Assembly (NCBI GenBank): GCA_965261085.1
Contig: OZ253442.1
Coordinates: forward strand, 2,080,001 to 2,144,000
DNA from: a bacterium
GTDB lineage: Bacteria > UBA8248
Direction: 5' to 3'
DNA length: 64,000 bases
Part shown: positions 1 through 12,929 of the stretch, one piece after another
Layout of the letters: each line of letters starts with the position of its first letter
Position numbering within the stretch: position 1 is the first letter of the stretch
Program-made: the position numbers and the translations under genes
The notes under the pieces: model-generated
The model's database searches: none
Told to the model about the DNA's origin: nothing
What the model saw: the letters and a program-made list of their open reading frames with translations, nothing else

Positions 1-1
1 G

Positions 2-538
2 GGCGGGGCGGAGGGGCTCTCCCTGCCCATCCTCCGGCAAATCATACCGCTCTACTTCGCGATGGGGCTCACGGCGCTCTCGGTTTTCCTCGTGATGCGG
101 TGGCTCGAATCGAGCCGCTTCGGCCTGAGGCTCCTCTCGATTCGCGAGGACGAGACGGCGGCGGATACGCTGGGGACGAACACGACCCTCTACAAGCTGG
201 TCGCCTTCATCATGAGCGCGTTCTTCCCGGGCGTCGTGGGGGGGATTTACGCCCGCTACATCACGTATATCGACCCCGAGACGGTGTTCAACATCCTCTT
301 CAGCGTCCAGATGGTGCTCATGTGCATCCTGGGCGGGAGGGGGACGGCGTGGGGTCCCGTTATCGGGGCGACGGTGCTCTATCTCATTCTGGAATTCACC
401 TGGGCGAATTTCCCCCACTTCCACAAGCTGGCGTCGGGGACCCTGATCGTCCTGATCATTCTCTACGCGCCTCGTGGGATCATGGGCTTTATCTACGGGA
501 GGGGGCTCGCGCAGTTGCGGCCCTCATTCAAGAATTGA
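2..538 (+). CDS. Branched-chain amino acid ABC transporter permease (LivM-like), 5'-truncated by window edge
   Basis: Hydrophobic ORF with the motifs SIREDETAADTLG and ILGGRGTAWGPVIGA; frame stays open to the window start. Confidence 0.85.
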   Translation, partial: GGAEGLSLPILRQIIPLYFAMGLTALSVFLVMRWLESSRFGLRLLSIREDETAADTLGTNTTLYKLVAFIMSAFFPGVVGGIYARYITYIDPETVFNILFSVQMVLMCILGGRGTAWGPVIGATVLYLILEFTWANFPHFHKLASGTLIVLIILYAPRGIMGFIYGRGLAQLRPSFKN

Positions 539-607
539 CCCCCCACCGCATCAGCCTTCGCCCAAAACGCTCGGCTTCTGCGACTCCCCCTCAAGGGGGG
601 AGTAATT
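539..607. repeat. REP/MITE-like palindromic element, family A (core ACTCCCCCTCAAGGGGGGAGT)
   Basis: Core at 583-603; near-identical copy at 1907-1973. Confidence 0.75.
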
Positions 608-694
608 CTTCTCTCTCGTCGGTCGGCAATATTGCCCAAGGGGGGATTGATTCCAAAAAGGGGATGGGGCTCGTAAGGGCGCCGTAAGGTCGGC

Positions 695-1657
695 TTAATC
701 GACGTAAATACAGGTTCCCGCCTCTCCGCGCAGGGCCGGGAGGGCATCTTCCAGGGCGGCGATGCAGATGCGCTTGCCTCCCCCTTCGAGAAAGCGGATC
801 GCCGCCTCTATCTTGGGTCCCATGCTGCCGGGCGGGAAGTGGCCCTGGGCGTGATAATTCTTGATCTCGGATAGCGAAACTCTATCCAGTTCGCGCTGCT
901 GCGGCGTGCCGAAGTGGACGGCCACCCTGGGCACGGCCGTCAAGATCATCATGTCCTCTACGCCTAAGACGTTGGCCATGAGGGCGGAGGTCAAATCCTT
1001 GTCGATGACGGCGTCGAGCCCCCGACGCGCGCCGTCGGCCTCGCGCACGACGGGAATGCCCCCGCCGCCGCCCGCGATCACCACGGCGCCACTTTGCGCT
1101 ATGGCCTGGATGAGCGAGATGTCCACGATGTGTTTAGGCCTGGGGGAGGCGACCACGTGCCGCCAGCCGCGGCCCGAGTCCTCGCGCATCGTCCAGCCCA
1201 TCTCCTTCTCATACCGCCTGGCTTCTTCTTCCGTGTAGGTGTAGCCCACGAACTTCGTCGGCGCGTCGAAGGCCGGATCGTCGGGGTCGACCTCGACCTG
1301 GGTCAGGAGGCAAACCACGTGGCGCGGGTCGCCCGCGCGCCTGAGCGCGTTCTCGAACGCCTGCATGAGCAGGTAGGCGATTCCCCCCTGGCTGTGAGCG
1401 ACGCAGATGTCGAGCGTCATCGGCGTCACCTGCTCGCTCGAAATCGCCTGTCGCATGAGGATTTTGCCCACGACGGGGCCGTTTCCGTGCGTGATGATGA
1501 GTTCGTTCTTGAGTTGTAGGAGGGGCAGCAGCGCGCGGCCCGTCGCCGCAGCGATGGCGGCCTGCTCCTCGGCGGTGCCGCGTATCTCGGGCGGATGGGT
1601 CGCGTTGCCGCCCACGGCGACGAGGATGCGTTCGGGAAGTTCGGGCGGGGAGGCCAT
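695..1657 (-). CDS. arcC: Carbamate kinase
   Basis: Motifs VAVGGNA, ITHGNGP, GGGGIPV, AVIDKD, GSMGPKIEAA; start placed at ATG 1657 after a GGAGA RBS. Confidence 0.9.
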   Translation of the reverse strand: MASPPELPERILVAVGGNATHPPEIRGTAEEQAAIAAATGRALLPLLQLKNELIITHGNGPVVGKILMRQAISSEQVTPMTLDICVAHSQGGIAYLLMQAFENALRRAGDPRHVVCLLTQVEVDPDDPAFDAPTKFVGYTYTEEEARRYEKEMGWTMREDSGRGWRHVVASPRPKHIVDISLIQAIAQSGAVVIAGGGGGIPVVREADGARRGLDAVIDKDLTSALMANVLGVEDMMILTAVPRVAVHFGTPQQRELDRVSLSEIKNYHAQGHFPPGSMGPKIEAAIRFLEGGGKRICIAALEDALPALRGEAGTCIYVD

Positions 1658-1906
1658 CAGCGGTATCTCCCAATAAACCCCGGCCTTCGGAAGCGGCGGC
1701 ATACAAATGCGGGTACAAGTCCCGCGCCGTCCTAAAAGCCGGGAGGAACATCTTACAACAAGCGGGGCGTTGTGGGGTAGAGAAATTTTTTGGGGGCAAG
1801 CACGACTGATGAAGGAGCGATTGCCGATTGAGGAAGGTATCGGTTCGCAACTCCTCGCTCCTTGCTCCTCGCTCGAAAGAATTCCTCCTTCATCAGTCGG
1901 AATTCA

Positions 1907-1973
1907 CCCCCCACGCATCAGCCGTCGCACAAACCGCTCGGCTTCTGCTACTCCCCCTCAAGGGGGGAGTGAT
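1907..1973. repeat. REP/MITE-like element family A, copy 2
   Basis: CGCATCAGCC...CGCTCGGCTTCTGC.ACTCCCCCTCAAGGGGGGAGT as at 539-607. Confidence 0.75.
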
Positions 1974-2051
1974 TTTGGAATTTTCCTTGTTGGGATTTGA
2001 TCCGCTCGGTTGGAAACCCTCATTCTTTAATTGTCATTGACCCGCATTGGG

Positions 2052-2121
2052 AATCACTCCCCCCTTGAGGGGGAGTCAGTGAGGTAAGGGCGTAAGCCCG
2101 CAAGCGAACTGGTGGGGGGTG
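2052..2121. repeat. REP/MITE-like element family A, inverted copy
   Basis: ACTCCCCCCTTGAGGGGGAGT core at 2056-2076; the flank is the reverse complement of 58213-58250. Confidence 0.7.
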
Positions 2122-2266
2122 AATCGCGACCGAGAAGGGAGCGATTGCTCCTTTTCAAGTCAGGCAGCCCCTCCTTCATCAATCGGGTTTGGCCCACACC
2201 CCCCGTTCATCCATACTCAAGCGGCGGATGGCGACGCGTAAGTCGCGCGCGAGTCGAAATAAGGGC

Positions 2267-2296
2267 TTGACAAGAATGGAAAATTTACCGCATTAT
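2267..2296 (+). promoter_or_regulatory. Putative sigma70 promoter for the long lipoprotein leader
   Basis: TTGACA (2267-2272), 18-nt spacer, CATTAT (2291-2296). Confidence 0.55.
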
Positions 2297-2302
2297 CCTA
2301 AT

Positions 2303-3100
2303 GCCGAGTAATTACACGAGAGCAGCCGCCCAAGGGACGCTCGCTGAATGCAGGACGGGCCTCATTCCAGAGGGCCGGAACGGGCGGGAACCACCTTGCG
2401 AAGTATGCACTCGCGTATGGCTTGGCGAAGCCCGGAAGACGACGACCCGGAAGGTTCCGGGCTTCAGTAGCAAATATCACGAGGCTAGAGGACTCGACTC
2501 ATCATGAAGCATGCCGCAAATCCCTCTCCAGTCTCGTGAATCAGTCAATCAGACGGCCCGGAGTTTTTCGTTCGCGCAAGCGGAGGCGCTCCGGCGCAGG
2601 GAAAGACGGTAAGCCCGGCGGGAGCCGGAGAAGCAGTAAATCACGAGGCTAGGCCAGAGGACTCGACCCGCGATGAAGCACGCCACGAATCCCCCTACCA
2701 GTCTCGTGAATTCACAGGCCATCGGCCCGGAGGCCCGGTTTCGCGCAAGCGGCGGCCCGGCCCCGGGAAAGATTGAAACCCGGGCAACGCCCGGATAAGG
2801 AGAATCGAAATTTCGGCTCGGGCCGGAGCGGTTTCATATCACGAGGCTGGAGGACTCAAACCATGATGATTCCTGAAAAGACTCCCACGCTAGTCTCGTG
2901 GATAAGCCGGCAACCGGCCCGGACTCGGCTGTCCGGGCCGGGGGCCTCGCGCTCCGGCGCCTGCCTGAAACGAATAAAAGCCCGATAACGGATGAAAGTC
3001 GGAAAGACAAACAGAAAGGAGGTTGGTTAAATCCAGACACTTCGGTTTTGTAGTAGCCAAAGTTCTTTAATAATATCACGAGACTAGGAGGACTCAAAAA
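2303..3100 (+). ncRNA. Candidate long structured 5' leader or ncRNA with three tandem RBS-sequestering hairpin units
   Basis: Hairpins TCACGAGGCT...AGTCTCGTG(A) at 2477-2539, 2641-2709 and 2839-2901, each enclosing GAGGACTC plus an ATG; many GNRA/UUCG-capped stems between them; no credible long ORF. Confidence 0.65.
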
Positions 3101-4633
3101 GTGATGAAACTCACCAGTAATAAAATCTTTTCATTCATGCTGGCGGCGGTGTTTGCGCTGACGCTCGCCGGCTGCGGCGGCGGCGGCGGCGGTACGGCTG
3201 CGGTGGATCCGGATCCTCCGGTGGTGACGCCGGAGCCTACCCCGCAGGAGATGTGCGCGGCGGATGGCGGGCGGTTTGAAGACGACGGGTCGTGCACCTC
3301 GGCCGCCGATCTCGAGACAGAACGTATAGCGGCGGAGGAGGCGGCAGCGGACAAAGTAGCAGATGCTACGAAATCGGCCGGTACGAAAGAAGAGGCCATC
3401 GGCGACGAGGCCGAAAGCGACGGTGCTGGCGGTCTCGGCGGCGCTACCGCTACTGCTCTCGACATCGAACACAAAGACGGCGCTGTGTCGATCGCGGTCA
3501 GCAGAGGCACCGGCGATGATAAGGTGGATTTCATGTCGGCCATGGATCTGACCGGCGTGGATGGCAGCACAGGCAGCATGAACTTGCTCGGCCCCAATGA
3601 TGACGACGTGACGGAAATCGCTATCGTCTACACCGACATCGACACGCCCACGCCCACGAAGTTCGGGGATGAGGGCACGGATGTCACGCTGAACGCCAAC
3701 CCTAAAACCACTAACGGCGAAGACTTCCAATCTGTCACTATCATCAATGATGATTTGGCGAAGATAGCGACGGATGGCATTACCGCTACAGGTGCTGGTG
3801 AGATCACTGTCCTGGCGGCAGTCGAGGACAACGACCAAACGGCGGATGTGGATGAGACCGTTGCGGCGTTTGAAACCGATGCCACCTTCGACGGCGCGGA
3901 TGGCAAATTGAAGTGCGCCCGCGACACCAACTGCATGGTCACGCTCGACGCGGACGGCAAGATAACTGATTTCAGCGCCGGATGGGAGTTCACACCCGCC
4001 GATGGCGCTAAGATCGACGTGGAGGACACTGACTACCTCTGGTACGGCGCCTGGCTGATGAAGACGGCGCAAGATGATGGCTCGGATGAATACAACCAGG
4101 TCGAGACCTTCGCGGATTCGACGCTTGTTGAGGCGAACAACGTTGGTAATGTCGATGGCAGCGCGGAATATAAAGGCGGCGCGGCAGGCGTGTACGTGAG
4201 AAACGTGTACGTACCATCAACTACGGGTGAGCAGAAACTCGACTATGCCAACTCCGGCCACTTCACGGCGAACGTCAATTTGACGGCGACCTTCGGTCAG
4301 ATGAACGCAGAGGGTTGTACTGGTGCTAACTGCGGCACCATCGCTCCCAACTTGATCAACACCGTAAGCGGAACCATCGACAACTTCAGCTTGTCCGGCG
4401 GCGAGGATGCGAGCGGCTGGGGCGTGGATGTGGCAGCCGGTATCAACGGCGCTGATCTTGAGAACGGAACGGCCAAGGGCGGTGGAGGTGATGATGGGTC
4501 GATTTCCGGAAACTTCCGCGGTACCGATACCGATGATGACGGTGCCATCGCGCCGAAAGCTCTGGTCGGCGAGTTCAACGCCGAGTTCACGAACGGCTCC
4601 GTGGCCGGTGGTTACGGTGCGAGAAGGCAGTAG
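3101..4633 (+). CDS. Surface lipoprotein 1 with C-terminal TbpB/transferrin-binding-like beta-barrel (possible Slam substrate)
   Basis: AGGAGG RBS at 3086-3091; signal peptide with lipobox LAGC then poly-Gly; C-terminus GSAEYKGGAAGVY...GEFNAEFTNGSVAGGYGARRQ. Confidence 0.8.
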   Translation: MMKLTSNKIFSFMLAAVFALTLAGCGGGGGGTAAVDPDPPVVTPEPTPQEMCAADGGRFEDDGSCTSAADLETERIAAEEAAADKVADATKSAGTKEEAIGDEAESDGAGGLGGATATALDIEHKDGAVSIAVSRGTGDDKVDFMSAMDLTGVDGSTGSMNLLGPNDDDVTEIAIVYTDIDTPTPTKFGDEGTDVTLNANPKTTNGEDFQSVTIINDDLAKIATDGITATGAGEITVLAAVEDNDQTADVDETVAAFETDATFDGADGKLKCARDTNCMVTLDADGKITDFSAGWEFTPADGAKIDVEDTDYLWYGAWLMKTAQDDGSDEYNQVETFADSTLVEANNVGNVDGSAEYKGGAAGVYVRNVYVPSTTGEQKLDYANSGHFTANVNLTATFGQMNAEGCTGANCGTIAPNLINTVSGTIDNFSLSGGEDASGWGVDVAAGINGADLENGTAKGGGGDDGSISGNFRGTDTDDDGAIAPKALVGEFNAEFTNGSVAGGYGARRQ

Positions 4634-4646
4634 AAACAGAACAGAG

Positions 4647-4722
4647 CAAGACGCCTGTGGTCTCGGGGCTTGACGATGAGCCCCGGGGCCGGGGCGAACC
4701 TAACAAGAAAGAAAAGGGGATT
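4647..4722 (+). other. Conserved 3' hairpin downstream of lipoprotein 1
   Basis: GGTCTCGGGGCT/AGCCCCGGGGCC stem followed by AAGAAAGAAAAGGGGATT; homologous to 8138-8211. Confidence 0.6.
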
Positions 4723-4747
4723 GCAAAGCAAGGCGAGTGACGCATTT

Positions 4748-4854
4748 TGGGGGTTACTCATTGGTTGCTCTCTATCGTCGGGAGCAAATTTACCGACCCA
4801 TGCTACAGAGTTTGAGTCCTCTCGGTGTGGGGAGGGAATAATGAGTAACCCCCA
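4748..4854 (+). ncRNA. Candidate 3'-derived small RNA carrying an anti-RBS loop
   Basis: Perfect 15-bp stem 4748-4762/4840-4854 enclosing two inner hairpins; TTTGAGTCCTCTCGGT (4811-4826) is complementary to the lipoprotein RBS regions. Confidence 0.55.
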
Positions 4855-4913
4855 CCTCTTCGCTATACCCGGTTTCCCCAAGTTTGGCAAGCTCAGGTTG
4901 GATTGATTCACAG

Positions 4914-4948
4914 AGGCGGTCCCGAGAGAAGGGGCCGCCTTTTGTTTT
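4914..4948 (+). terminator. Intrinsic terminator
   Basis: AGGCGGTCCC-loop-GGGGCCGCCT followed by TTTGTTTT. Confidence 0.75.
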
Positions 4949-5004
4949 GGTGTGGGGAAGAATGCAAACGCTCCCGCATTGGTCTCGGCAAACGCTCCTT
5001 TCTC

Positions 5005-5196
5005 GGGGTTGTTGAAAAAGACCCCTTTTTAGAGACTAGAGGGGACACCCCTTTCGACTGGTAAAAGCAACCCCCCTGTCCCCCCTTGTCAGGGGGGCTT
5101 TTCTTCCACCCCCTCGTCGGGGGGCATCGCCTTTACCCCCCTGACAAGGGGGGACAGGGGGGTTGCTCCCTTGACAAAGGCTTTTTCAACAACCCC
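5005..5196. mobile_element. MITE with IS1182-type ends enclosing a 32-bp perfect inverted repeat
   Basis: 16-bp TIR GGGGTTGTTGAAAAAG/CTTTTTCAACAACCCC matching the ends of the IS at 8275-9796; internal IR 5066-5097/5136-5167. Confidence 0.75.
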
Positions 5197-5364
5197 TCTT
5201 CGGTCAGAATTGACCCTCAAGGGGGGAGTGAATTTCCTCTCTCATCAATCGGCAAACGCTCTCGCATTGGTCGCGTCAAACACTCATTCATCAATCGTGT
5301 TTGACCTTCATCGGTCGGAAGAATTCCACCCTGATCGGTCGCGTTTGCTCCTCATCGGTCGGAA

Positions 5365-5394
5365 TTGACGAAGCGCGCGATCTGTTCATATAGT
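5365..5394 (+). promoter_or_regulatory. Putative sigma70 promoter of the small membrane protein gene (duplicated at 9966-9995)
   Basis: TTGACG-N18-TATAGT. Confidence 0.55.
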
Positions 5395-5441
5395 AATGGA
5401 TGTCCCGAAGCGCCGGAGGACCCGTCGCCAAGGAGAAACGC

Positions 5442-5687
5442 ATGACGACGTATGAATACCTGAACCTCACCGCCTCCTACGGCGGCCTTGCGCTGATCTG
5501 CTACGGCATCCGCGTCATGGCGAAGGGCGCCGAAATGCGCGCGACCGACTCCGAGCGCAAGCACGAGCAGGTGATGACCGCATCCGAGCGCAGGCACGAG
5601 GAGTCGATGACGTCCCTGCGCGAACTCATCGACGGGCAGGCGGAAAGCCGCATGGCCCTGCGCAAACTCATCGAGCGAACCGGATAG
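5442..5687 (+). CDS. Small protein (81 aa), N-terminal hydrophobic helix plus coiled coil, unknown function
   Basis: AAGGAG RBS before ATG 5442; hydrophobic LTASYGGLALICYGIRVM; internal repeat SERKHEQVMT/SERRHEESMT; duplicated. Confidence 0.65.
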   Translation: MTTYEYLNLTASYGGLALICYGIRVMAKGAEMRATDSERKHEQVMTASERRHEESMTSLRELIDGQAESRMALRKLIERTG

Positions 5688-5699
5688 CGAACCACAAGG

Positions 5700-5808
5700 T
5701 CGTCATTCCGGCGCATGCCGGTGGCGACCGTGAGGTTGACCAGAACCAAAGTGGAACGTCCGGCGTCGGGCGTTTCTGCACCCCGGATAAAACGCTCCGG
5801 GATGACGA
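5700..5808. repeat. GTCATTCCGG-type palindromic REP-like element (second copy ~10301-10410)
   Basis: TCGTCATTCCGG ... CCGGGATGACGA terminal inverted repeat. Confidence 0.6.
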
Positions 5809-5870
5809 GCCAAACCTTTATCCGCCGCAGCAAACTCTCTCGCGTTTGACGCGTTTGATCTCACTCGGTT

Positions 5871-5900
5871 CCCTGCCGGAACCGGCAGGGGGCTTTTTTT
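5871..5900 (+). terminator. Intrinsic terminator upstream of lipoprotein 2
   Basis: CCCTGCCG-GAAC-CGGCAGGG then GGC and T7. Confidence 0.6.
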
Positions 5901-5966
5901 GCTCGAACGCGAGTGAGGAGAGGGGGTCAATATGTTATTATAACGAGACCAGAGGGGACTCAAAAA

Positions 5967-8126
5967 GTGATGAAACTCACCGGTAATAAAATCTTTTCAT
6001 TCATGTGGGCGGCGGCCTTCGCGCTGACGCTGGCCGGCTGCGGCGGCGGCGGTGGTGGTGGTGCGTCGGACGATACCATGACGACACCGTCAGTACCCGA
6101 CCAGGCGATCATGGCGGCGAAAGATGCGGCGGCGGAAGCTGCGGCAGAGGCTACGGCGGCGCTGAATGCAGCGAAGGAGGCCGTAGACGGCGCCAGTGCA
6201 GACCAGGATTATGACGCCGTGCACTACGCTCTCGCCACTACCGAACTGGGCAAGGCCAAGGATGCCAAGGCGGCTGCGGAGGCCGCACAGGCGGACGCCG
6301 AGATGTTCGCCAAGGCGGTTGCGGATGCCAAGAAGGCTGCGCCTCCGGCTTCTTCGGATCAGGCCGAGTTTGAAGCAAGGCTGGCCCTGGCGGATGCCAA
6401 GACTGCAACGGCGAGCGCCGTAGCGGCGGCGGGTGCGGCCGTGACGGCGACGAAGGCGGCTGCGAGAGCGGCGGCGGCTGCGGTGACCAAGGCGACGGCG
6501 GCAAGGACGAATGCCGCTGGAGCCGAGGCCGCGAAGAAGGCGGCGGATCAAGCGGCGAAGGACGCGGCGGCCGCCAAGAAGACGGCGGATGCGGCGAAGG
6601 CCGCCGTAGCGAAACTCAATGATGACGGCATCGGCACCAGGAAGGGTGCTGCGGACCTCGAGTCGGCTGCGGACACTGCTGCGGGCAATGCAGCCACCGC
6701 CATGAGGAAGGCGAATGAAGCCAAGGCGGCTGCCGAAAAGGCGCGGGACGATGCCATGGCTGCGGCTAACACGCACGTTCTGGGCTTGTTCAAGGCGGCG
6801 AATGGAGACGATATTACATTTGTCGGCAGTGAAGATGATGCGGATATCGCCTCTGCTCTCGGAAGAGCGAAATCCGCTCGGAGAAAGGCCGTTATCGAAG
6901 CAATCGGAACAGCGGCGGACGCCCGACTCGGAGCTGAAGTTGTGATTAAGTGGCCTGCCGACGTGGCAGCCAATCCTGATGCTGCACCACCTACGGAGGC
7001 CGTGCCCGGAGCGCTTTCGATTGAGGTCATCCCCACCGGCGGCTCTGAGATTCCCTTCCGCGCGGAAGCCGTGGAGGATGACCCTTTTACGGATCGAGAC
7101 GAGTCCATGTCGAAGACGGCCACCAAGATCGACGGGTTGCCCGGCTTCAAACACGGGTATGCAGTTTCGGATGGCGGGTCCCATACAATCGTCTTCACCG
7201 ACAAGGAACAGTCGACTCCGGCCGTTCCGGAGAAGACCGTCACCTTGACCTTAGATAACCGGCCCGTGACTGCTTCTCGGGTTGTCCTGCCGGAAGGTGC
7301 AACCACTCTTTCAAACGCCACCTACGATCATGACGGTGACCCGGATACGTTTGGGGTTACAGCCACATTCACGTGTGGTTCAACCAACCCGAGTGATTGC
7401 TCGTTTTCAATTCAAGACGGGAAACTGACATCTCTTGTTGGATATGTAGTTGATGTCTCTGTAACCGATTTTCTACTAGCTGCCGCAAAAGATGGAGTAG
7501 ATGATAATGACTACCTCGCCTTCGGCGTCTGGCTGAGAGTCGACGAGGACGGCAACACGGATGGCGAGCTACCGGCCGTCGGCGTATTCGCAGACGGCGG
7601 AACGCCTTTCGCTACGTCTGCAGCTCTTATCGGTACGGCGACTTACCGGGGCGCTGCTACGGGCGTTTATACCCAGGGAAGCGCGGTTGATTACTTCCAA
7701 GGCAGCGCCACCTTGACGGCCAACTTCGGCACGAAGCCCGAGATGGGTGAAGACGACATGATGGGAGCCATCACCGGCATGATTCACGACATCGTGGCGG
7801 GTGGTGTTTCCATGCGCGATGTTATTCTCCTGAACGCTGATTTTACGAATGCTGATGGTAAGCCCGTGGATAACATTACTGCGGCAGGCGGCTTCACCGG
7901 AATGGCCCGCATGGGCGCGCCCACCGTGACAGGCGACGTGGCCTCGCACCCCTACAACGGCGCATGGGGCGGGCAGTTCTACGGTCCGGCTGCGGATGAA
8001 GACGCGACAGGCGTAGATGCCCTTCCGCCTGCGGTTGCCGGCGCGTTCGGCGTGACCGGCGCCACGGGTGAAGGCGATGCCGCCGTCACCAGAAGTTACG
8101 TGGGCGCGTTCGGCGCGCGCAGGTAG
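5967..8126 (+). CDS. Surface lipoprotein 2 with Ala-rich coiled-coil stalk and TbpB-like C-terminal barrel
   Basis: Nearly the same RBS, GTG-ATG start and signal peptide (LAGC-GGG) as gene 1; Ala/Lys-rich helix ~6110-6770; C-terminus GTATYRGAATGVY...SYVGAFGARR. Confidence 0.8.
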   Translation: MMKLTGNKIFSFMWAAAFALTLAGCGGGGGGGASDDTMTTPSVPDQAIMAAKDAAAEAAAEATAALNAAKEAVDGASADQDYDAVHYALATTELGKAKDAKAAAEAAQADAEMFAKAVADAKKAAPPASSDQAEFEARLALADAKTATASAVAAAGAAVTATKAAARAAAAAVTKATAARTNAAGAEAAKKAADQAAKDAAAAKKTADAAKAAVAKLNDDGIGTRKGAADLESAADTAAGNAATAMRKANEAKAAAEKARDDAMAAANTHVLGLFKAANGDDITFVGSEDDADIASALGRAKSARRKAVIEAIGTAADARLGAEVVIKWPADVAANPDAAPPTEAVPGALSIEVIPTGGSEIPFRAEAVEDDPFTDRDESMSKTATKIDGLPGFKHGYAVSDGGSHTIVFTDKEQSTPAVPEKTVTLTLDNRPVTASRVVLPEGATTLSNATYDHDGDPDTFGVTATFTCGSTNPSDCSFSIQDGKLTSLVGYVVDVSVTDFLLAAAKDGVDDNDYLAFGVWLRVDEDGNTDGELPAVGVFADGGTPFATSAALIGTATYRGAATGVYTQGSAVDYFQGSATLTANFGTKPEMGEDDMMGAITGMIHDIVAGGVSMRDVILLNADFTNADGKPVDNITAAGGFTGMARMGAPTVTGDVASHPYNGAWGGQFYGPAADEDATGVDALPPAVAGAFGVTGATGEGDAAVTRSYVGAFGARR

Positions 8127-8137
8127 TAGAAGAAAAA

Positions 8138-8211
8138 GCAAGACGCCTTTGGGCCTCGGGCTTATCAAGCCCCGGGGCCGGGGGCGATCCGATAAGAAAG
8201 AAAAGGGGATT
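8138..8211 (+). other. Conserved 3' hairpin downstream of lipoprotein 2
   Basis: GGCCTCGGGCTT/AAGCCCCGGGGCC stem plus AAGAAAGAAAAGGGGATT; homologous to 4647-4722. Confidence 0.6.
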
Positions 8212-8274
8212 TCCGAAGCGGGGAGGGAGAGCGTCGAAGGGGAGCGCGCCCTTCGATACAAACGCTCCTTTCTC

Positions 8275-9796
8275 GGGGTTGTTGAAAAACCCCTGACTCT
8301 ATGCTTGGATGTATGGATATTACGCGCCCGAGAAGGGAATATCCGCGATGTTGGGACGCAAGAACCGCGCCCAGATGGATTTGTTCATCACCGGTTCGCT
8401 GGAGAGGTTGATTCCCGAGGATCACATATTGGCCCGCGTGAACCGCGTTCTGGACCTGAGTTGGCTGCGCGAGGAAGTGGCGGATTGTTATTGCGCGGAC
8501 AACGGCCGTCCTGGGATCGACCCCGAAGTGGCGGTTCGGTTGATGTTGGCGGGCCTTCTGCTGGGGTTCGTGCACGACCGTCGGTTGATGCGCGAGGCGC
8601 AGGTGAACATCGCGATCCGGTGGTTCATCGGTTACGGGCTGGAGGATCGGCTGCCGGATCATTCGAGCCTGACGCGGATACGGCAGCGCTGGGGGGAGGC
8701 CCGGTTCCGGGAGATATTCCGCCGCACGGTCCGTGCGTGCCTGGATGCGAAGGTGGCCAAGGCCGAAGTCGTGCACGTGGACGCCTCATTGATCCGCGCG
8801 GACGTGAGTTGGGAGAGTCTGGTGGAGCGTCACGTGGACGAGGTGATAGCGGAGAACCCCGTCGAGGAGGAGGCCGGGAAGAAGGGTGGAGGAGGCCGCC
8901 GTGGCGGGGGTTCCGGGAAGGTGAGCCGGACGGACCCGGACGCGCGGCTGGCGAGAACGGGCGGGGGATTCGAGCCGAGCTACAAGCAGCACGCTGTGGT
9001 GGACGACACGCGCGGGGTGGTGCTCGACGTATCGGTGACGGAGGGTACGGTGAACGAGCGTGAGGTGCTCGAATCGCAGGTGGAAGCGGTATGCGAGGTA
9101 TCGGGGCGCGCGCCCGCGATGGTGACGGCGGACTCTGGCTACGCCTACTCGAAGGTCTACGCGGCCCTGGAGCGCCGGGGTGTGGCCGCGCTCATTCCGG
9201 CGAAGAGGGAACCCTCGCAGAGCCGTGTTCCGTTGCGCCTGTTCCGCTACGACGCGCGGCACGACATCGTGAAGTGTCCGCGCGGCAAGATACTGAGCCC
9301 CCGTCGGCCCGCAAAGGGGGGGCGTTATTATCGTTCGAAGACCCGTGATTGCGCGGGCTGCGCGCTTCGCGAGGATTGCCTGCCGAAGGCGTGGTCGAGC
9401 AAGGTGGTGTTGGTTCCGCATGCGTATCCGGCGCTGTTGCGCGCGCGCCGGCGCCATGCGCGATGGAGGGAGGAGGAGCGGCGGATGTACCGGCGTCATA
9501 TGTGGCGCTCGGAGGGCTACCACGGCGAGGCGAAGACCTGGCACGGGCTTGCGCGCGCGGTGCGGCGCGGTCTTGAGAACATGAAGATACAGTCCTACCT
9601 GACGGCGGCGGCGATCAACCTCAAGCGGCTCTCCGCCGCACTTGCTGCAAGGTTATTCGCCCTCTGGAGGGCCTGGTCGGCCCGGGAAGAGCCTCTGTGC
9701 GTCCATCGCGGCCTCGCAAGCTGCGCGGGCTTCCTGTCCGCCGCCGCGTGACCCTCCATACCGCCCGCTCCCGAAACCGGGTTATTCAACAACCCC
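8275..9796 (+). mobile_element. IS1182-family insertion sequence
   Basis: TIRs GGGGTTGTTGAAAAACCC / GGGTTATTCAACAACCCC; 5-bp direct repeat TTCTC at 8270-8274 and 9797-9801. Confidence 0.9.
8348..9751 (+). CDS. IS1182-family DDE transposase
   Basis: GRPGIDPEV, PDHSSLTRIRQR, HVDAS, TADSGY, CPRG...C-x2-C-x4-C, EGYHGEAK. Confidence 0.9.
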   Translation: MLGRKNRAQMDLFITGSLERLIPEDHILARVNRVLDLSWLREEVADCYCADNGRPGIDPEVAVRLMLAGLLLGFVHDRRLMREAQVNIAIRWFIGYGLEDRLPDHSSLTRIRQRWGEARFREIFRRTVRACLDAKVAKAEVVHVDASLIRADVSWESLVERHVDEVIAENPVEEEAGKKGGGGRRGGGSGKVSRTDPDARLARTGGGFEPSYKQHAVVDDTRGVVLDVSVTEGTVNEREVLESQVEAVCEVSGRAPAMVTADSGYAYSKVYAALERRGVAALIPAKREPSQSRVPLRLFRYDARHDIVKCPRGKILSPRRPAKGGRYYRSKTRDCAGCALREDCLPKAWSSKVVLVPHAYPALLRARRRHARWREEERRMYRRHMWRSEGYHGEAKTWHGLARAVRRGLENMKIQSYLTAAAINLKRLSAALAARLFALWRAWSAREEPLCVHRGLASCAGFLSAAA

Positions 9797-10042
9797 TTCT
9801 CAGTCGCGTTTGACCTTCGGCGGCTACTCAGGGTGAGGTCGATACGGTGGCCATGCAAGACGAGGGGAACACGCTCGCTCCCAGGGCCGGGTTTTTCAAC
9901 AGCCCCTCCTCACTCGGATTTGATATTCATCACTCGCGTTTGACACTCCCGCGCATCGGTCTGGATTGACGAAGCGCGCGATCTGTTCATATAGTAATGG
10001 ATGTCCCGAAGCGCCGGAGGACCCGTCGCCAAGGAGAAACGC

Positions 10043-10288
10043 ATGACGACGTATGAATACCTGAACCTCACCGCCTCCTACGGCGGCCTTGCGCTGATCT
10101 GCTACGGCATCCGCGTCATGGCGAAGGGCGCCGAAATGCGCGCGACCGACTCCGAGCGCAAGCACGAGCAGGTGATGACCGCATCCGAGCGCAGGCACGA
10201 GGAGTCGATGACGTCCCTGCGCGAACTCATCGACGGGCAGGCGGAAAGCCGCATGGCCCTGCGCATACTCATCGAGCGAACCGGATAG
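10043..10288 (+). CDS. Small membrane/coiled-coil protein, copy 2
   Basis: Identical to 5442-5687 except K to I near the C-terminus. Confidence 0.65.
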   Translation: MTTYEYLNLTASYGGLALICYGIRVMAKGAEMRATDSERKHEQVMTASERRHEESMTSLRELIDGQAESRMALRILIERTG

Positions 10289-11003
10289 CGAACCACAAGG
10301 TCGTCATTCCGGCGCATGCCGGTGGCGACCGGGAGGTTGACCAGAACCAAAGTGGAACGTCCGGCGTCGGGCGTTTCCGGATACCGGATAAAAACACTCC
10401 GGGATGACGAGCCAAACCGTTATCCGCCGCAGCAGAATTCCTTCTTGATCAGTCGGCAAACGCTCTCGCGCATTGGTCGCGTTTGATCTCACTCGCTCGC
10501 GTTTGACGCGCAATTCCCCGCATTTGGCGTCGCCGCGCCCGTAGCGGGATGCGCGAGAATGCCGTCCGCAAATGCAGTTTCCCGCTTGCACTTGAGCATC
10601 ATGAGGAAGGCACGATGAAAAAGGGAATTTCAGGGGATCATTTCTTCCGCACGCACCTGGCGAATCCCTCGCGGCGGTCGCAATCGCATTTGGCGGACCT
10701 CGCGCGCTACCCGCAGGCCGACGGCTCCGTCGGGGCGATGGAAAGGCGCGGGGGCGGGAGGAGAACGGGGGTTTCGGAATTGATGAAAAATACGATAAAT
10801 ATCGATTAATACATGAAAAGGTTTATGGCTCATCCTACCAGGACAATCTATTATAATTCATGTAATTGTAGAGTTATATTAAAGTAGTACATTATAGAAT
10901 TATCGAAATTTATCGAATTGAAAACTTTTCTCAAACCCCCGCATTTGCCCGCATTTCCCCGCACGGAGTCATCGTTTCAGCAGCCACCAGGTGAACCGGG
11001 GGG

Positions 11004-11537
11004 TCACCTTTTCAGCAGCCACACGCCGTCCTCGCCATCCACCTCGCGCATCCTGACCTGAATGTGCTCCTGTAAGGATGTGGGCACGTTCTTGCCGATA
11101 AAATCGGGCCGAAACGGCAATTCCCTGTGGCCGCGGTCTATCAGGGCGGCGAGCCAGATTTTACGGGGCCTCCCGAGCTCCATGATGGCGTCGATGGCCG
11201 CGCGGGCCGTCCTGCCCGTGAAGAAAACGTCGTCGACTAGTAATACTCCCCGATCCGTCAGGTCGAAATCGATGAGCGTGGGCTCGAAACCGCGCCCCTC
11301 GGTGGGGTGCCCCGCGTCGTCGCGGTGGACGCCGATATCGAGCGCGCCCAGGGGGGGCGAGATGCCTTCGAGTTCCTCGATATGCCCCGCAAGCCGCCTG
11401 GCGAGCGGTTCTCCCCGGGTGAGCACCCCGATGAGAGCGATGTTCTTATCCGCCGCGCACGCCTCCATCATCTCGGAGGCGATTCTCTTGAGCGAGAGTT
11501 CAAGCTCTTGCGCCGTCATGATGGATATCGGAGCCAT
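11004..11537 (-). CDS. pyrR: PyrR paralogue (pyrimidine regulator/uracil phosphoribosyltransferase)
   Basis: [18 protein letters not shown] motif; LIDRGHRELP.RPDFIGKN. Confidence 0.8.
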   Translation of the reverse strand: MAPISIMTAQELELSLKRIASEMMEACAADKNIALIGVLTRGEPLARRLAGHIEELEGISPPLGALDIGVHRDDAGHPTEGRGFEPTLIDFDLTDRGVLLVDDVFFTGRTARAAIDAIMELGRPRKIWLAALIDRGHRELPFRPDFIGKNVPTSLQEHIQVRMREVDGEDGVWLLKR

Positions 11538-11603
11538 GCAGGGTACCTGGAGTTGTCGGAAACGGATTCAGGTCATCCTAGAACTTATGGGTTCGCGGAT
11601 CAA

Positions 11604-12929
11604 TCAATCATTCTTCGGAACCGGAAAATTCCGCCGGGCGAAGTCCCTGGCCTCCTCGGTTGTGGATATGCGCCCTTCGAGCTGCTCGTCTTCGAGCGCA
11701 AAGAGGATTTCCCCCAGCCCGCGCCCCGCCGGATAGCCTATTTCCATGAGTTCGTGGCCATCGAGCAAACGCGGCGGACGCAAGCCTTCCTCGTAAAGCT
11801 CGCCAAGTTTTCGCGTGCAGAATTCATACGTTCTTAAATTCCCGTGACTGGCGAGGCAATCGATACGGTGGAGTTCCAGCAATTCCTCGAAATACGGCTC
11901 GCGCAGGAATCTTTTCAGGCGGCTTTCGCGCATCTTTTCCACGTGCATGAAGCGCATGTGATTGGCGACCAACTCGTGGATTCTCGATGCGCGCGCTCTG
12001 GGCATGCGGAGCCTTTCGCAGATGCCCAAGCTCATCGCCGCGCCCGCCTTGTCATGCCCGTTGAAGCGGATTCTGTCGGTTTCGGTGTATGTAACCGGTT
12101 TTCCGACATCATGGAGCAATACGCCCCACGAGAGCGTCGGCGAGGCGGCGCGCTTGATGCGCAACATGGCGAGGACGTGCGTCCACACGTCCCCTTCTGG
12201 GTGAAATTCCGGCGGTTGCGCCACGCCCTTCATGGCGGCGACTTCGGGAAGGACGTATTCCAGGAGCCCCGAGGCGGCGAGCATGGCGAAGGCGCTATCG
12301 GCATTCTCGTGGGTCAGCATCATCGTCAACTCGTCACGAATCCTCTCCGGGCTTATTTTCCCGATGTTCTTCGCATGGGTTTCGATGGCGACGGCTGTCT
12401 TGGACTCGAGCGCGGAACCGAACCTCGCCGAGAAGCGAACCGCTCTCAGCATCCGCAAATGGTCTTCGCAGAACCTGAGATTCGCGTCTCCGATGGCCCG
12501 AATGATTCCGTCTTCGAGATCGCGCAGGCCGCCGACGTAATCGAGGACCCGGCTCGTCGATACGTCATAAAACAACCCGTTGATCGTGAAATCACGCCGC
12601 TTCGCGTCCCCTTCCTCATCGGAGGGCCGAACCGAGTCGGGATGTCTTCCGTCCCTGTAGGCGCCGTCTTCGCGAAATTGCGCCACTTCAAACTCCTGGC
12701 CATCCATGCGCACGAGCACCACGCCAAACTGCGCTCCCACCGCGATGGTTTTCTCGAAGCGGCCTTGCACGATTTGCGGCGTTGCATCTGTGGCGATATC
12801 CCAGTCTTTCGGTTGAGACCCAAGCAGGGCGTCCCTCACACACCCGCCCGCAAGAAGCGCTCTATGACCCGAGGCCTCGAGGGTCTGGATAATCTGAATC
12901 GCCGCATCCGGAGGCTTTATGTTCAGCAT
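11604..12929 (-). CDS. CCA tRNA nucleotidyltransferase / poly(A) polymerase family with HD domain
   Basis: GGCVRDALLG...DWDIAT, RRDFTING, EDHLRMLRAVRF, HPEGDVWTH, LLHDVGK. Confidence 0.9.
   Translation of the reverse strand: MLNIKPPDAAIQIIQTLEASGHRALLAGGCVRDALLGSQPKDWDIATDATPQIVQGRFEKTIAVGAQFGVVLVRMDGQEFEVAQFREDGAYRDGRHPDSVRPSDEEGDAKRRDFTINGLFYDVSTSRVLDYVGGLRDLEDGIIRAIGDANLRFCEDHLRMLRAVRFSARFGSALESKTAVAIETHAKNIGKISPERIRDELTMMLTHENADSAFAMLAASGLLEYVLPEVAAMKGVAQPPEFHPEGDVWTHVLAMLRIKRAASPTLSWGVLLHDVGKPVTYTETDRIRFNGHDKAGAAMSLGICERLRMPRARASRIHELVANHMRFMHVEKMRESRLKRFLREPYFEELLELHRIDCLASHGNLRTYEFCTRKLGELYEEGLRPPRLLDGHELMEIGYPAGRGLGEILFALEDEQLEGRISTTEEARDFARRNFPVPKND

Follow-up and report, generated by a model that had tools for sequence, protein, structure and literature searches.

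Tandem hairpin-masked copies of a gene's own translation start region in the probable regulatory leader of a TbpB-like lipoprotein gene

We analysed the region upstream of lipoprotein 1, a gene at 3104 to 4633 (+ strand) of the window, that is, the whole 64,000-nucleotide stretch of DNA under study. The gene is preceded by diverged, hairpin-locked copies of its own translation start region, as an initial annotation of the sequence had proposed, and selection on this leader acts at the RNA level, on the + strand. The leader probably controls translation of the lipoprotein gene in a way that is new to description. We tentatively favour, with slightly less than even confidence, the reading that positions 2303 to 3106 are a long cis-acting 5′ leader whose masked anti-start-site strands are able to switch to the true start site.

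Anatomy of the array and its promoter

The motif TCACGAGRCT was found on the + strand at 2477, 2641, 2839 and 3076, with the spacings of 164, 198 and 237 nt already listed in the initial annotation, and its reverse complement was found at 2530 and 2700. These six matches compare with 0.27 expected, and none of 100 shuffles reached six. A third 3′ arm, at 2892 to 2900, matched in 9 of 10 bases. Each 5′ arm is followed by GAGGACTC and then by ATG. Copies 1 to 3 of the motif are closed by a 3′ arm into hairpins of 62–69 nt, and copy 4 is the true start. The predicted folds of hairpins 1, 2 and 3 had energies of −21.5, −26.1 and −21.2 kcal/mol (z = −2.8, −3.9 and −2.5), versus −11.6 kcal/mol (z = +0.17) for the region of copy 4, in agreement with the earlier distinction between three hairpin-locked copies and one real start.

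The repeat unit is larger than the hairpin, and the element as a whole begins with the promoter, at 2267, and takes in a 5′ domain of 160 nt. This domain (2303 to 2465, + strand, as are all parts of the leader) consists of a closing stem (2303–2309 with 2420–2426), an inner GC stem and a hairpin at 2427–2465, whose arms form a perfect 11-bp inverted repeat (2427–2437 and 2455–2465). Hairpin 1 (2477 to 2539), of type A, pairs a start-region copy, made up of the 5′ arm, AGAGGA and ATG, with a C-rich antisense 3′ arm, and scored 86 bits with R1, a covariance model of the hairpin. It is followed by tail alpha (2540 to 2640), the 3′ end of which is a 5-bp hairpin with a GNRA loop (2615–2628). Hairpin 2 (2641 to 2709; 65.9 bits) is also of type A and carries a 5-nt insertion in its 5′ half; it is followed by tail beta (2710 to 2838), which in relatives ends in a small hairpin and a U run. 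Hairpin 3 (2839 to 2901; 74.1 bits) is of type B, with GGAGGA in the 5′ arm and UGG instead of UGA at the end of the 3′ arm, and a type B hairpin is the last one in 11 of 12 species. In the predicted hairpins, the GGA of each unit pairs with the C-rich strand, and the loop CGCC.CAAA.CCC is kept even in the degenerate copies of G015.

An 18-bp GC-rich stem with a variable 6-nt loop (2906 to 2950) and an A/G-rich spacer (2951 to 3075) separate the array from the gene. The spacer holds GAAAGGAGG at 3014–3022, 60 nt 5′ of the true SD, which fully matches the 3′ end of the 16S rRNA (...CCTCCTTTCT) and has no start codon behind it. This sequence is kept in 11 species and is also present in the leaders of a second lipoprotein subfamily. 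The true translation start region (3076 to 3106) comprises TCACGAGACT, AGGAGGA and then GTG at 3101 or ATG at 3104. It is identical in all 12 species and carries A where the hairpin arms carry G. Its predicted consensus fold is a weak, small local hairpin with the SD in the loop.

A sigma-70-type promoter, TTGACA-18-CATTAT (2267 to 2296, + strand), agrees with the consensus at 10 of 12 positions and was the sole + strand promoter-like site returned by a consensus scan of 2100–3300. The −35 box and the promoter region are kept in 12 of 12 species, the same site being found in G008, and a transcript start near 2303 is predicted. About 14 bp 5′ of the −35 box lies a GC-rich 10-bp palindrome (2240 to 2256, + strand), a candidate regulator site. 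Most species have TTGCGCGCAA at this point and this genome has TCGCGCGCGA; the change is symmetric and keeps the palindrome, which is present twice in G015 and is not a genome-wide motif (8 copies versus 5 expected in the genome). Two other promoter candidates were discarded. A −10-like TAATAT just 5′ of the true start, evaluated by eye and by scan, is without a −35 box at conserved spacing, and a − strand promoter-like site at 3097–3070 was judged to be due to chance because it is absent in species whose leader reads AATGTCACG.

From this layout we infer one continuous RNA running from the promoter through to the gene. No + strand terminator-like site was found between promoter and ATG in this genome or in G013, tail beta included. 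A terminator-like site does lie after the second tail and before the last hairpin in G008, which hints that part of the RNA could end before the gene in some species.

Distribution of the element and its target gene

The block comprising promoter, 5′ domain, hairpins and true start (2267 to 3106, + strand) occupies a single locus in each of 12 among 23 species of one uncultured Nitrospinota genus. In every case the orthologous lipoprotein gene, the same gene each time, follows directly, and the block contains 2 to 4 hairpins per species. In this genome R1 detected the three known hairpins only, and BLASTN of the units found no further copy in it; the hits upstream of paralogous lipoproteins that had been anticipated did not appear here, and the hairpin is unique to its locus. 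Run over the genus and over eight further genera of its family, R1 matched those 12 of 23 species again and none of 19 other genomes. Three weak extra matches (about 30 bits) were obtained in G015. Two were inspected, both of them 5′ of other lipoprotein genes, and no significant structure emerged when these two leaders were folded.

A scan of the whole collection for an 18-nt hairpin pattern returned 99 stretches. The single matches listed in unrelated taxa were about at chance level (estimate roughly 140), and among the stretches listed multiple matches per stretch occurred in Nitrospinota-type MAGs only. A metagenome scan for the element yielded just 2 further contigs. The initial annotation had recognised no known RNA class, and a cmscan of window positions 1–12000 against Rfam release 15 (E up to 1) likewise returned nothing relevant over the array; the lone overlapping match was RT-3, at 20.2 bits versus a gathering score of 40.5 (E = 0.28). 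A literature search found no published equivalent of the leader among the papers covered.

The product of the downstream gene, lipoprotein 1, has a signal peptide with a lipobox. The N-terminus contains LAGC followed by a Gly run, with L21, A22 and C24 invariant in 40 homologues. No sequence match was found in Pfam, NCBIfam or PDB. A structure model (pLDDT 83) shows a handle and a C-terminal beta-barrel fold like that of TbpB, HpuA and NHBA, and the top 30 Foldseek matches were to TbpB, HpuA, NHBA, fHbp and LbpB; the best of these (NHBA C-domain, HpuA, TbpB, LbpB and fHbp) had E-values of 1e-5 to 1e-3, probability of about 1 and TM to target of up to 0.58. A Slam-type (SlipAM) gene (PF04575, 90.7 bits) is located at G000:C1:65677-66546, and lipoprotein 1 is only a putative client of it. 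The start region of a neighbouring paralogue, lipoprotein 2 (5943 to 5973, + strand; CDS to 8126), has a leader like the hairpin 5′ arms and no array. A pattern search of the genus found this leader type in no genome but this one; the pattern was one base too long for the main leader, so that the result covers the paralogue leader alone.

We considered whether the array is a separate or excised noncoding RNA, with the 3′ halves and tail hairpins serving as trans-acting anti-start sRNAs on lipoprotein mRNAs or with the whole RNA serving as a sponge. In G008 the tail before the last hairpin forms a terminator-like hairpin with a U run, similar U runs occur in most relatives, and the 5-bp GNRA hairpins at the tail ends could shield 3′ ends. 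The paralogue's leader matches as well. A precedent exists in the tandem LhrC sRNAs of Listeria, which pair C-rich motifs with the RBSs of surface-protein mRNAs (PMC8079631). Nevertheless, we regard a trans-acting RNA as unlikely. The units are without promoter-like sites of their own, this genome and G013 are without a terminator-like site, the gene to which the array is fused is the same in every case, and the antisense strands are masked within hairpins. A matching leader was found at that gene only, plus one paralogue in one genome, which disagrees with the suggestion in the initial annotation that small RNAs processed from the array control a surface-antigen family; for this the single locus per genome is a further obstacle. 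A decoy sponge for an anti-RBS sRNA or an RNA-binding protein had also been suggested. For a sponge that takes up a CsrA-type protein or an sRNA dependent on Hfq we found no support: the single-contig genome, which is 96% complete, gave no match to CsrA/RsmA (PF02599, for which control genomes do match) or to Hfq (PF17209), and the GGA motifs are located in stems.

Selection on the leader acts at the RNA level

Identity among species over the hairpins and the start site was 0.82–0.94, versus 0.60–0.65 at fourfold-degenerate sites of the neighbouring gene. The lipoprotein coding sequence itself falls to 0.35 or less past about position 3300. Within the leader, two pairs of the 5′ domain show compensatory changes in an RNAalifold analysis of 12 species: pair 8–144 is UA in 7 and CG in 5, and pair 10–142 is AU in 6, GC in 3 and GU in 2. 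These compensatory changes may trace to just one or two events. Of the cells in the hairpin stem, 90% are paired, versus 35–53% with the partner slid, and one-sided changes are all G-U. One-sided changes in the 18-bp stem are likewise all G-U or U-G, and its loop is free to vary (RNAalifold, 11 species). The tail hairpins keep a GNRA loop in 14 of 15 cases from 12 species, in five different sequences.

The hairpin stems showed no statistically significant covariation because both arms hardly vary. Covariation among homologues, on which the initial annotation had made its proposal depend, was therefore absent from the hairpin stems and present in the leader as a whole, through the 5′ domain. 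The annotation's further point that all three hairpins share a G-U wobble was borne out more widely: among 34 distinct hairpins, stem position 7 is G-U in 30 and G-C in 3, and A-U does not occur. In all 12 species the equivalent position of the true leader is A. U alone pairs with both G and A.

These data bear on the possibility that there is no RNA device at all, and that the repeats are decaying duplicates of the 5′ end of the gene or DNA sites such as recombination or copy-number repeats or operator half-sites. Start regions are still being duplicated in tandem in this genome, where another lipoprotein gene (G000:C1:68.7-69.0 kb) carries a recent copy of its own start site together with the 5′ coding part, and the copy number of the hairpin varies from 2 to 4 across species. 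However, the hairpins are far better conserved than neutral sites, changes compatible with G-U pairing are seen on the + strand only, GNRA loops and compensatory pairs are maintained, and the arms are 43–49 bp apart, unlike a paired operator. We consider this explanation highly improbable.

Reading frames begin within the hairpins. The initial annotation stated that they differ in frame and length, as they do in this genome (11, 41 and 41/40 aa). Across the 12 species, however, the frames recur, so that the statement holds within this genome only: 18 of 27 type A hairpins contain a frame of 11–12 codons with its UGA stop within the 3′ arm, and all 11 type B hairpins have a frame of 33–47 codons. 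Such frames recall the erm, cat and mgtL leaders, in which a short frame is translated and its ribosome decides between hairpins. Ribosomes on the hairpin frames, Pro-rich in type A, might in the same way select pairings, and the SD-like motif 8 nt ahead of the ATG and the PSP or PPP encoded by the C-rich strand are in favour of this. Against it, a start codon is missing from 7 of the 27 type A hairpins, another 2 carry a frameshift, and the SD-like motif is paired in the hairpin. Variation at codon positions 1, 2 and 3 was 15, 7 and 17, third positions showing no surplus, and the majority of changes are residue replacements; in type B, the variable bases are at unpaired positions of the RNA and alter the amino acid. 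The hairpin frames were rejected as coding on this codon-position pattern, in line with the earlier view that the peptide is not what is conserved. The lengths of the tails differ between species by non-multiples of three. Attenuation by leader-peptide translation is very unlikely in our judgement.

Predicted pairings and comparison with known systems

The complementarity of the 3′ arms to the real leader, noted earlier, was confirmed, and we calculated duplex energies for the possible partners. For 27 type A 3′ arms, the predicted duplex with the arm of the same hairpin averaged −22.6 kcal/mol. With the true start site the same arms gave −24.5 kcal/mol, which was better than their own arm in 24 of 27; for the last hairpin's 5′ arm the mean was −27.4 kcal/mol, an improvement on the own arm in 24 of 25. 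In just 1 of 27 did the best of the three partners lie in the same hairpin. Random 27-mers of the same loci averaged −10.5 kcal/mol. For the last hairpin, the true start site beat the own arm in 5 of 11 species only, and in two or three hairpins with G-C at the wobble position or with broken arms exchange is not possible. Shared descent of the copies could by itself be reflected in such an energy ranking.

In minimum-energy folds of the full leader, the true start was paired with an array arm in 10 of 11 species, with a summed ensemble probability of 0.59–0.87 across the 11, under equilibrium folding, which ignores kinetics and under-penalises long-range pairs. The multi-step relay suggested in the initial annotation is consistent with these folds and with the order of energies, in which the own arm is weakest and the real start is exceeded by the 5′ arm of the last hairpin; both are predictions. 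In the leaders of the second lipoprotein subfamily, a purine-rich strand is predicted to mask a C/U-rich strand just 5′ of the SD, and this masking design is invariant in 19 loci.

A cis-acting leader might also work with no strand exchange, if the units are stabilising modules or bind a protein or ribosomes, for example protecting the RNA from RNase E or Rho or offering a 30S landing platform. The full SD match without a start codon in GAAAGGAGG, shared with the second subfamily, resembles the STAB-SD stabiliser of cry3A (PMC4113751), the hairpin loop sequence has survived in degenerate copies, and RNase E/G is present in the genome. This reading is nonetheless quite unlikely, as it leaves unexplained that the own arm is almost never the best partner and that G-U is kept and never A-U. 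Moreover, no candidate binding protein is known, and RNase J (TIGR00649), the 5′–3′ exonuclease against which a STAB-SD guards the mRNA, gave no match in the genome.

Our preferred reading, strand exchange within a cis-acting leader, would work as follows. The array would have originated by tandem duplication of the gene's own start region, comprising a short leader, the SD, the ATG and the first codons. The downstream half of each copy would then have turned into a C-rich strand antisense to the start region, so that each copy folds with a start-site mimic masking an anti-start-site strand. During transcription, each hairpin would close locally and leave the true start site open, and translation would therefore be on. 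Since both the last hairpin's 5′ arm and the true start are predicted to bind the masked strands more tightly than the strands' own partners do, a register shift could pass along the array: arm 1 would shift to the next 5′ site, and so onward until the last arm covers the true start and SD and translation is switched off. Slow refolding, a factor on the 5′ domain or the first mimic, and ribosomes loading on the mimics are candidate triggers. The strand exchange and its translational effect are what we infer from these models. Because the number of hairpins varies from 2 to 4, no fixed step count would be needed.

A stricter form of this proposal, in which the leader is a natural strand-displacement cascade and each anti-start strand prefers the next downstream 5′ site, leading stepwise to closure of the RBS, appears doubtful. 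If it were true, each mRNA would be translated only for a fixed time or up to the arrival of a signal, and the delay or gain would depend on how many units there are. To our knowledge, multi-step RNA switches and timers of such a kind have so far existed by design only. Should strand exchange be real, the leader would be a natural multi-step RNA switch or timer and a regulatory RNA evolved through duplication of its own target site. The element suggests that the TbpB-like surface lipoproteins of this uncultured genus, a fast-evolving family, are under strong post-transcriptional control.

The SD is hidden by alternative pairing in translational riboswitches, in RNA thermometers and in the rpoS leader with its anti-antisense sRNAs. 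The present leader would resemble these in that the SD and a third strand compete for one anti-SD, and control would be at initiation. It differs in that the competitor is a cis copy of the gene's own start, repeated 2–4 times, and in that there is no recognised ligand domain, no Rfam match and no strong local hairpin at the true start. ROSE and fourU thermometers pair the SD of the controlled gene in an imperfect local hairpin that opens on warming. Here the true site folds weakly alone, and the imperfect hairpins with G-U pairs are the decoys.

The mRNA of meningococcal fHbp contains two anti-RBS sequences within the coding region that act as a thermosensor (PMC4999090). The likeness is a surface lipoprotein of the same fold class and a C-rich anti-RBS in the same mRNA that acts on the start, here by prediction; the difference is that the present anti-RBS strands are upstream, in an 800-nt leader, and each is masked by a mimic. 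LhrC1-4 of Listeria are separate genes for RNAs of 105–121 nt with terminator loops, encoded away from their targets (PMC8079631). They share with the array tandem homologous units and C-rich motifs that pair with surface-protein RBSs, which is predicted here. By contrast, the units of the array have no promoters of their own, are fused to the target gene and mask the C-rich strand. Siblings of the LhrC or Qrr type have a promoter and terminator per unit, and here one promoter-like site was found for the whole block. The cry3A STAB-SD is likewise a non-initiating SD-like sequence in the 5′ UTR matching the 16S rRNA 3′ end (PMC4113751), but it would account for one small part of the leader, and RNase J is the enzyme that it blocks. 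The sponges CsrB and RsmZ expose their GGA motifs in loops, unlike the stem-paired GGA of the array.

The hok mRNA is inhibited by folding back, its start site being shut by long-range pairing after refolding, and has no repeated units. The target-mimic and decoy RNAs of which we know act in trans on a small RNA. With these systems the leader shares a copy of the target site that competes for an antisense strand and, by prediction, a start site shut by long-range pairing, and it differs in that mimic and antisense are within one hairpin. Control of translation by hiding the RBS is well known; what would be new here is that one leader masks several antisense strands, and that the mask is in each case a copy of the start site of the gene itself.

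Architecture of the start-site array

The initial annotation described four tandem copies of a translation start region upstream of the lipoprotein 1 gene, the first three locked in hairpins, and this description held. TCACGAGRCT occurs on the + strand at 2477, 2641, 2839 and 3076 (spacings of 164, 198 and 237 nt) and in inverted orientation at 2530 and 2700; these 6 matches compare with 0.27 expected, and the number was reached in 0 of 100 shuffles. The third 3′ arm, at 2892, has 9 of the 10 motif bases. GAGGACTC followed by ATG lies downstream of every 5′ arm. Hairpins were predicted for units 1–3, with folding energies between −21 and −26 kcal/mol and z from −2.5 to −3.9. No such hairpin was obtained for unit 4, where the 509-aa lipoprotein actually starts. 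At 3014-3022 there is also a complete SD match that no start codon follows.

The 5′ half of each unit is a copy of the true start region, comprising the arm, an SD-like AGAGGA or GGAGGA, 8 nt and ATG, after which the codons resemble the lipoprotein's own MK.T.N; the 3′ half is a C-rich antisense of this copy. Type A hairpins end in UGA and type B, always the last hairpin, in UGG. Short frames recur in 18 of 27 type A and all 11 type B hairpins, 7 hairpins have no start codon, and no codon-position bias was found in the variation of these frames. Leader-peptide attenuation is graded as improbable.

Conservation and selection on the RNA

Of the 23 species in the genus, a group of uncultured Nitrospinota MAGs, 12 keep the whole block (2267-3106, + strand). 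It occupies a single locus per genome, always directly 5′ of the orthologous lipoprotein gene, with 2–4 hairpins. No further units were found outside the array in the source genome, a single 4.27-Mb contig containing the window. A covariance model built from 36 hairpins matched the same 12 species and none of 19 genomes from eight other genera of the family. The same architecture was present on two additional metagenome contigs, and in a collection-wide pattern scan, among the stretches listed, more than one match per stretch occurred solely in these Nitrospinota MAGs. Compared with four species whose fourfold-degenerate sites in a neighbouring gene are 0.60–0.65 identical, identity was 0.82–0.94 in the hairpins and start site, 0.45–0.8 in the tails between hairpins, and 0.35 or less in the lipoprotein coding sequence past about 3300. 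The true leader does not differ among the 12 species.

The sole promoter-like site found on the + strand of 2100-3300 is TTGACA-18-CATTAT (2267-2296), in a region conserved in 12/12 species; upstream lies a 10-bp palindrome whose symmetry is preserved by a paired change in the source genome. Transcription probably starts near 2303. No + strand terminator-like site was found downstream of the promoter in the source genome or G013, another species of the genus; in G008, a third, such a site follows the second tail. About 85 nt 5′ of the main promoter lies another promoter-like site, TTGACC-17-CATAAT (L008:962-990 in G013, aligned to about 2180-2215 of the window), which is conserved in several species but weak in the source genome; its transcripts would take in the palindrome.

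The closing stem of the 5′ domain (2303-2465, + strand) begins at the predicted transcript start, and the domain shows compensatory changes at one pair (UA in 7 versus CG in 5) and at a second (AU in 6, GC in 3, GU in 2). Of the cells in the hairpin stem, 90% are paired versus 35–53% with slid partners; covariation there did not reach significance, the two arms being nearly invariant. All one-sided changes in this stem yield G-U pairs, which would be mismatches if read on the opposite strand, and an 18-bp GC stem 3′ of the last hairpin behaves likewise. Non-RNA explanations are given very little weight. Terminal tail hairpins carry a GNRA loop in 14 of 15 cases, with five different sequences. 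An Rfam search over the array gave no match. The block is judged to be an RNA leader on the + strand, conserved and new in its architecture.

Predicted competition for the true start site

At stem position 7, 34 distinct hairpins have G-U in 30, G-C in 3 and A-U in 0, and the true leader always has A at the equivalent position. Thermodynamic prediction gave type A 3′ arms a mean duplex energy of −22.6 kcal/mol with their own arm; predicted pairing was stronger with the true start site (mean −24.5) and strongest with the last hairpin's 5′ arm (mean −27.4). In 1 of 27 cases the own arm came out as the best of these three partners. The 3′ arm of the last hairpin was predicted to pair better with the true start site than with its own arm in 5 of 11 species. 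In 10 of 11 minimum-energy folds of the full leader, likewise predictions, an array arm was paired to the true start site. Together, these patterns appear as signs of designed competition. During transcription, local hairpins would be expected to form before long-range pairs.

RNase E/G is present in the source genome, and CsrA, Hfq and RNase J were sought there and not found. That the array yields trans-acting or processed RNAs is an unlikely, if the strongest, alternative; that the leader serves as a stabilising or binding platform is somewhat less likely still. We tentatively favor, as the most likely function, cis control of translation, in which masked anti-start-site strands would be swapped.

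Related leaders and the putatively regulated lipoprotein

Degenerate hairpin units occur singly in G015, the species that diverges most (L103:473-535 and L104:198-263; about 30 bits with the hairpin model). They sit 20–90 nt 5′ of other lipoprotein paralogues, their loop motif better preserved than their arms. A second subfamily of lipoproteins with multiple copies (N-terminus MMFKEK...; G000:C1:1672419-1672770, L043, and loci L033-L052) occurs in seven genomes of the genus with about 110 nt upstream nearly invariant. Its leader has a complete SD match that lacks a start codon, then a predicted hairpin in which a purine-rich strand would mask a C/U-rich strand about 15 nt 5′ of the real SD; in three loci, a sequence perfectly antisense to the real SD takes the place of the upstream SD-like motif. 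Outside the window, at G000:C1:68600-69100 (minus strand), the start region of another lipoprotein gene has recently been duplicated in tandem, together with about 25 codons of the 5′ coding part; a Slam-type gene lies just downstream. This duplicate illustrates how hairpin arrays can arise.

Within the window, long palindromic REP-like elements on CCCCCTCAAGGGGGGAG-type arms (1943-2083 and 5062-5180) gave spurious sub-threshold Rfam matches to microRNA models. A carbamate-kinase-like gene of the amino acid kinase family (62-1702, minus strand) adjoins an ABC-permease fragment, a 95-aa ORF without a Pfam match (5400-5687) lies between the two lipoprotein genes, and a 480-aa DDE transposase (8309-9751; DUF772, DDE_Tnp_1 and DDE_Tnp_1_6 domains) lies just 3′ of the second.

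The Slam-type gene of the source genome mentioned above (PF04575) lies at G000:C1:65677-66546. No sequence-family match was found for the regulated lipoprotein; its predicted structure (pLDDT 83) matches the fold of the TbpB/HpuA/NHBA/fHbp lipoproteins.
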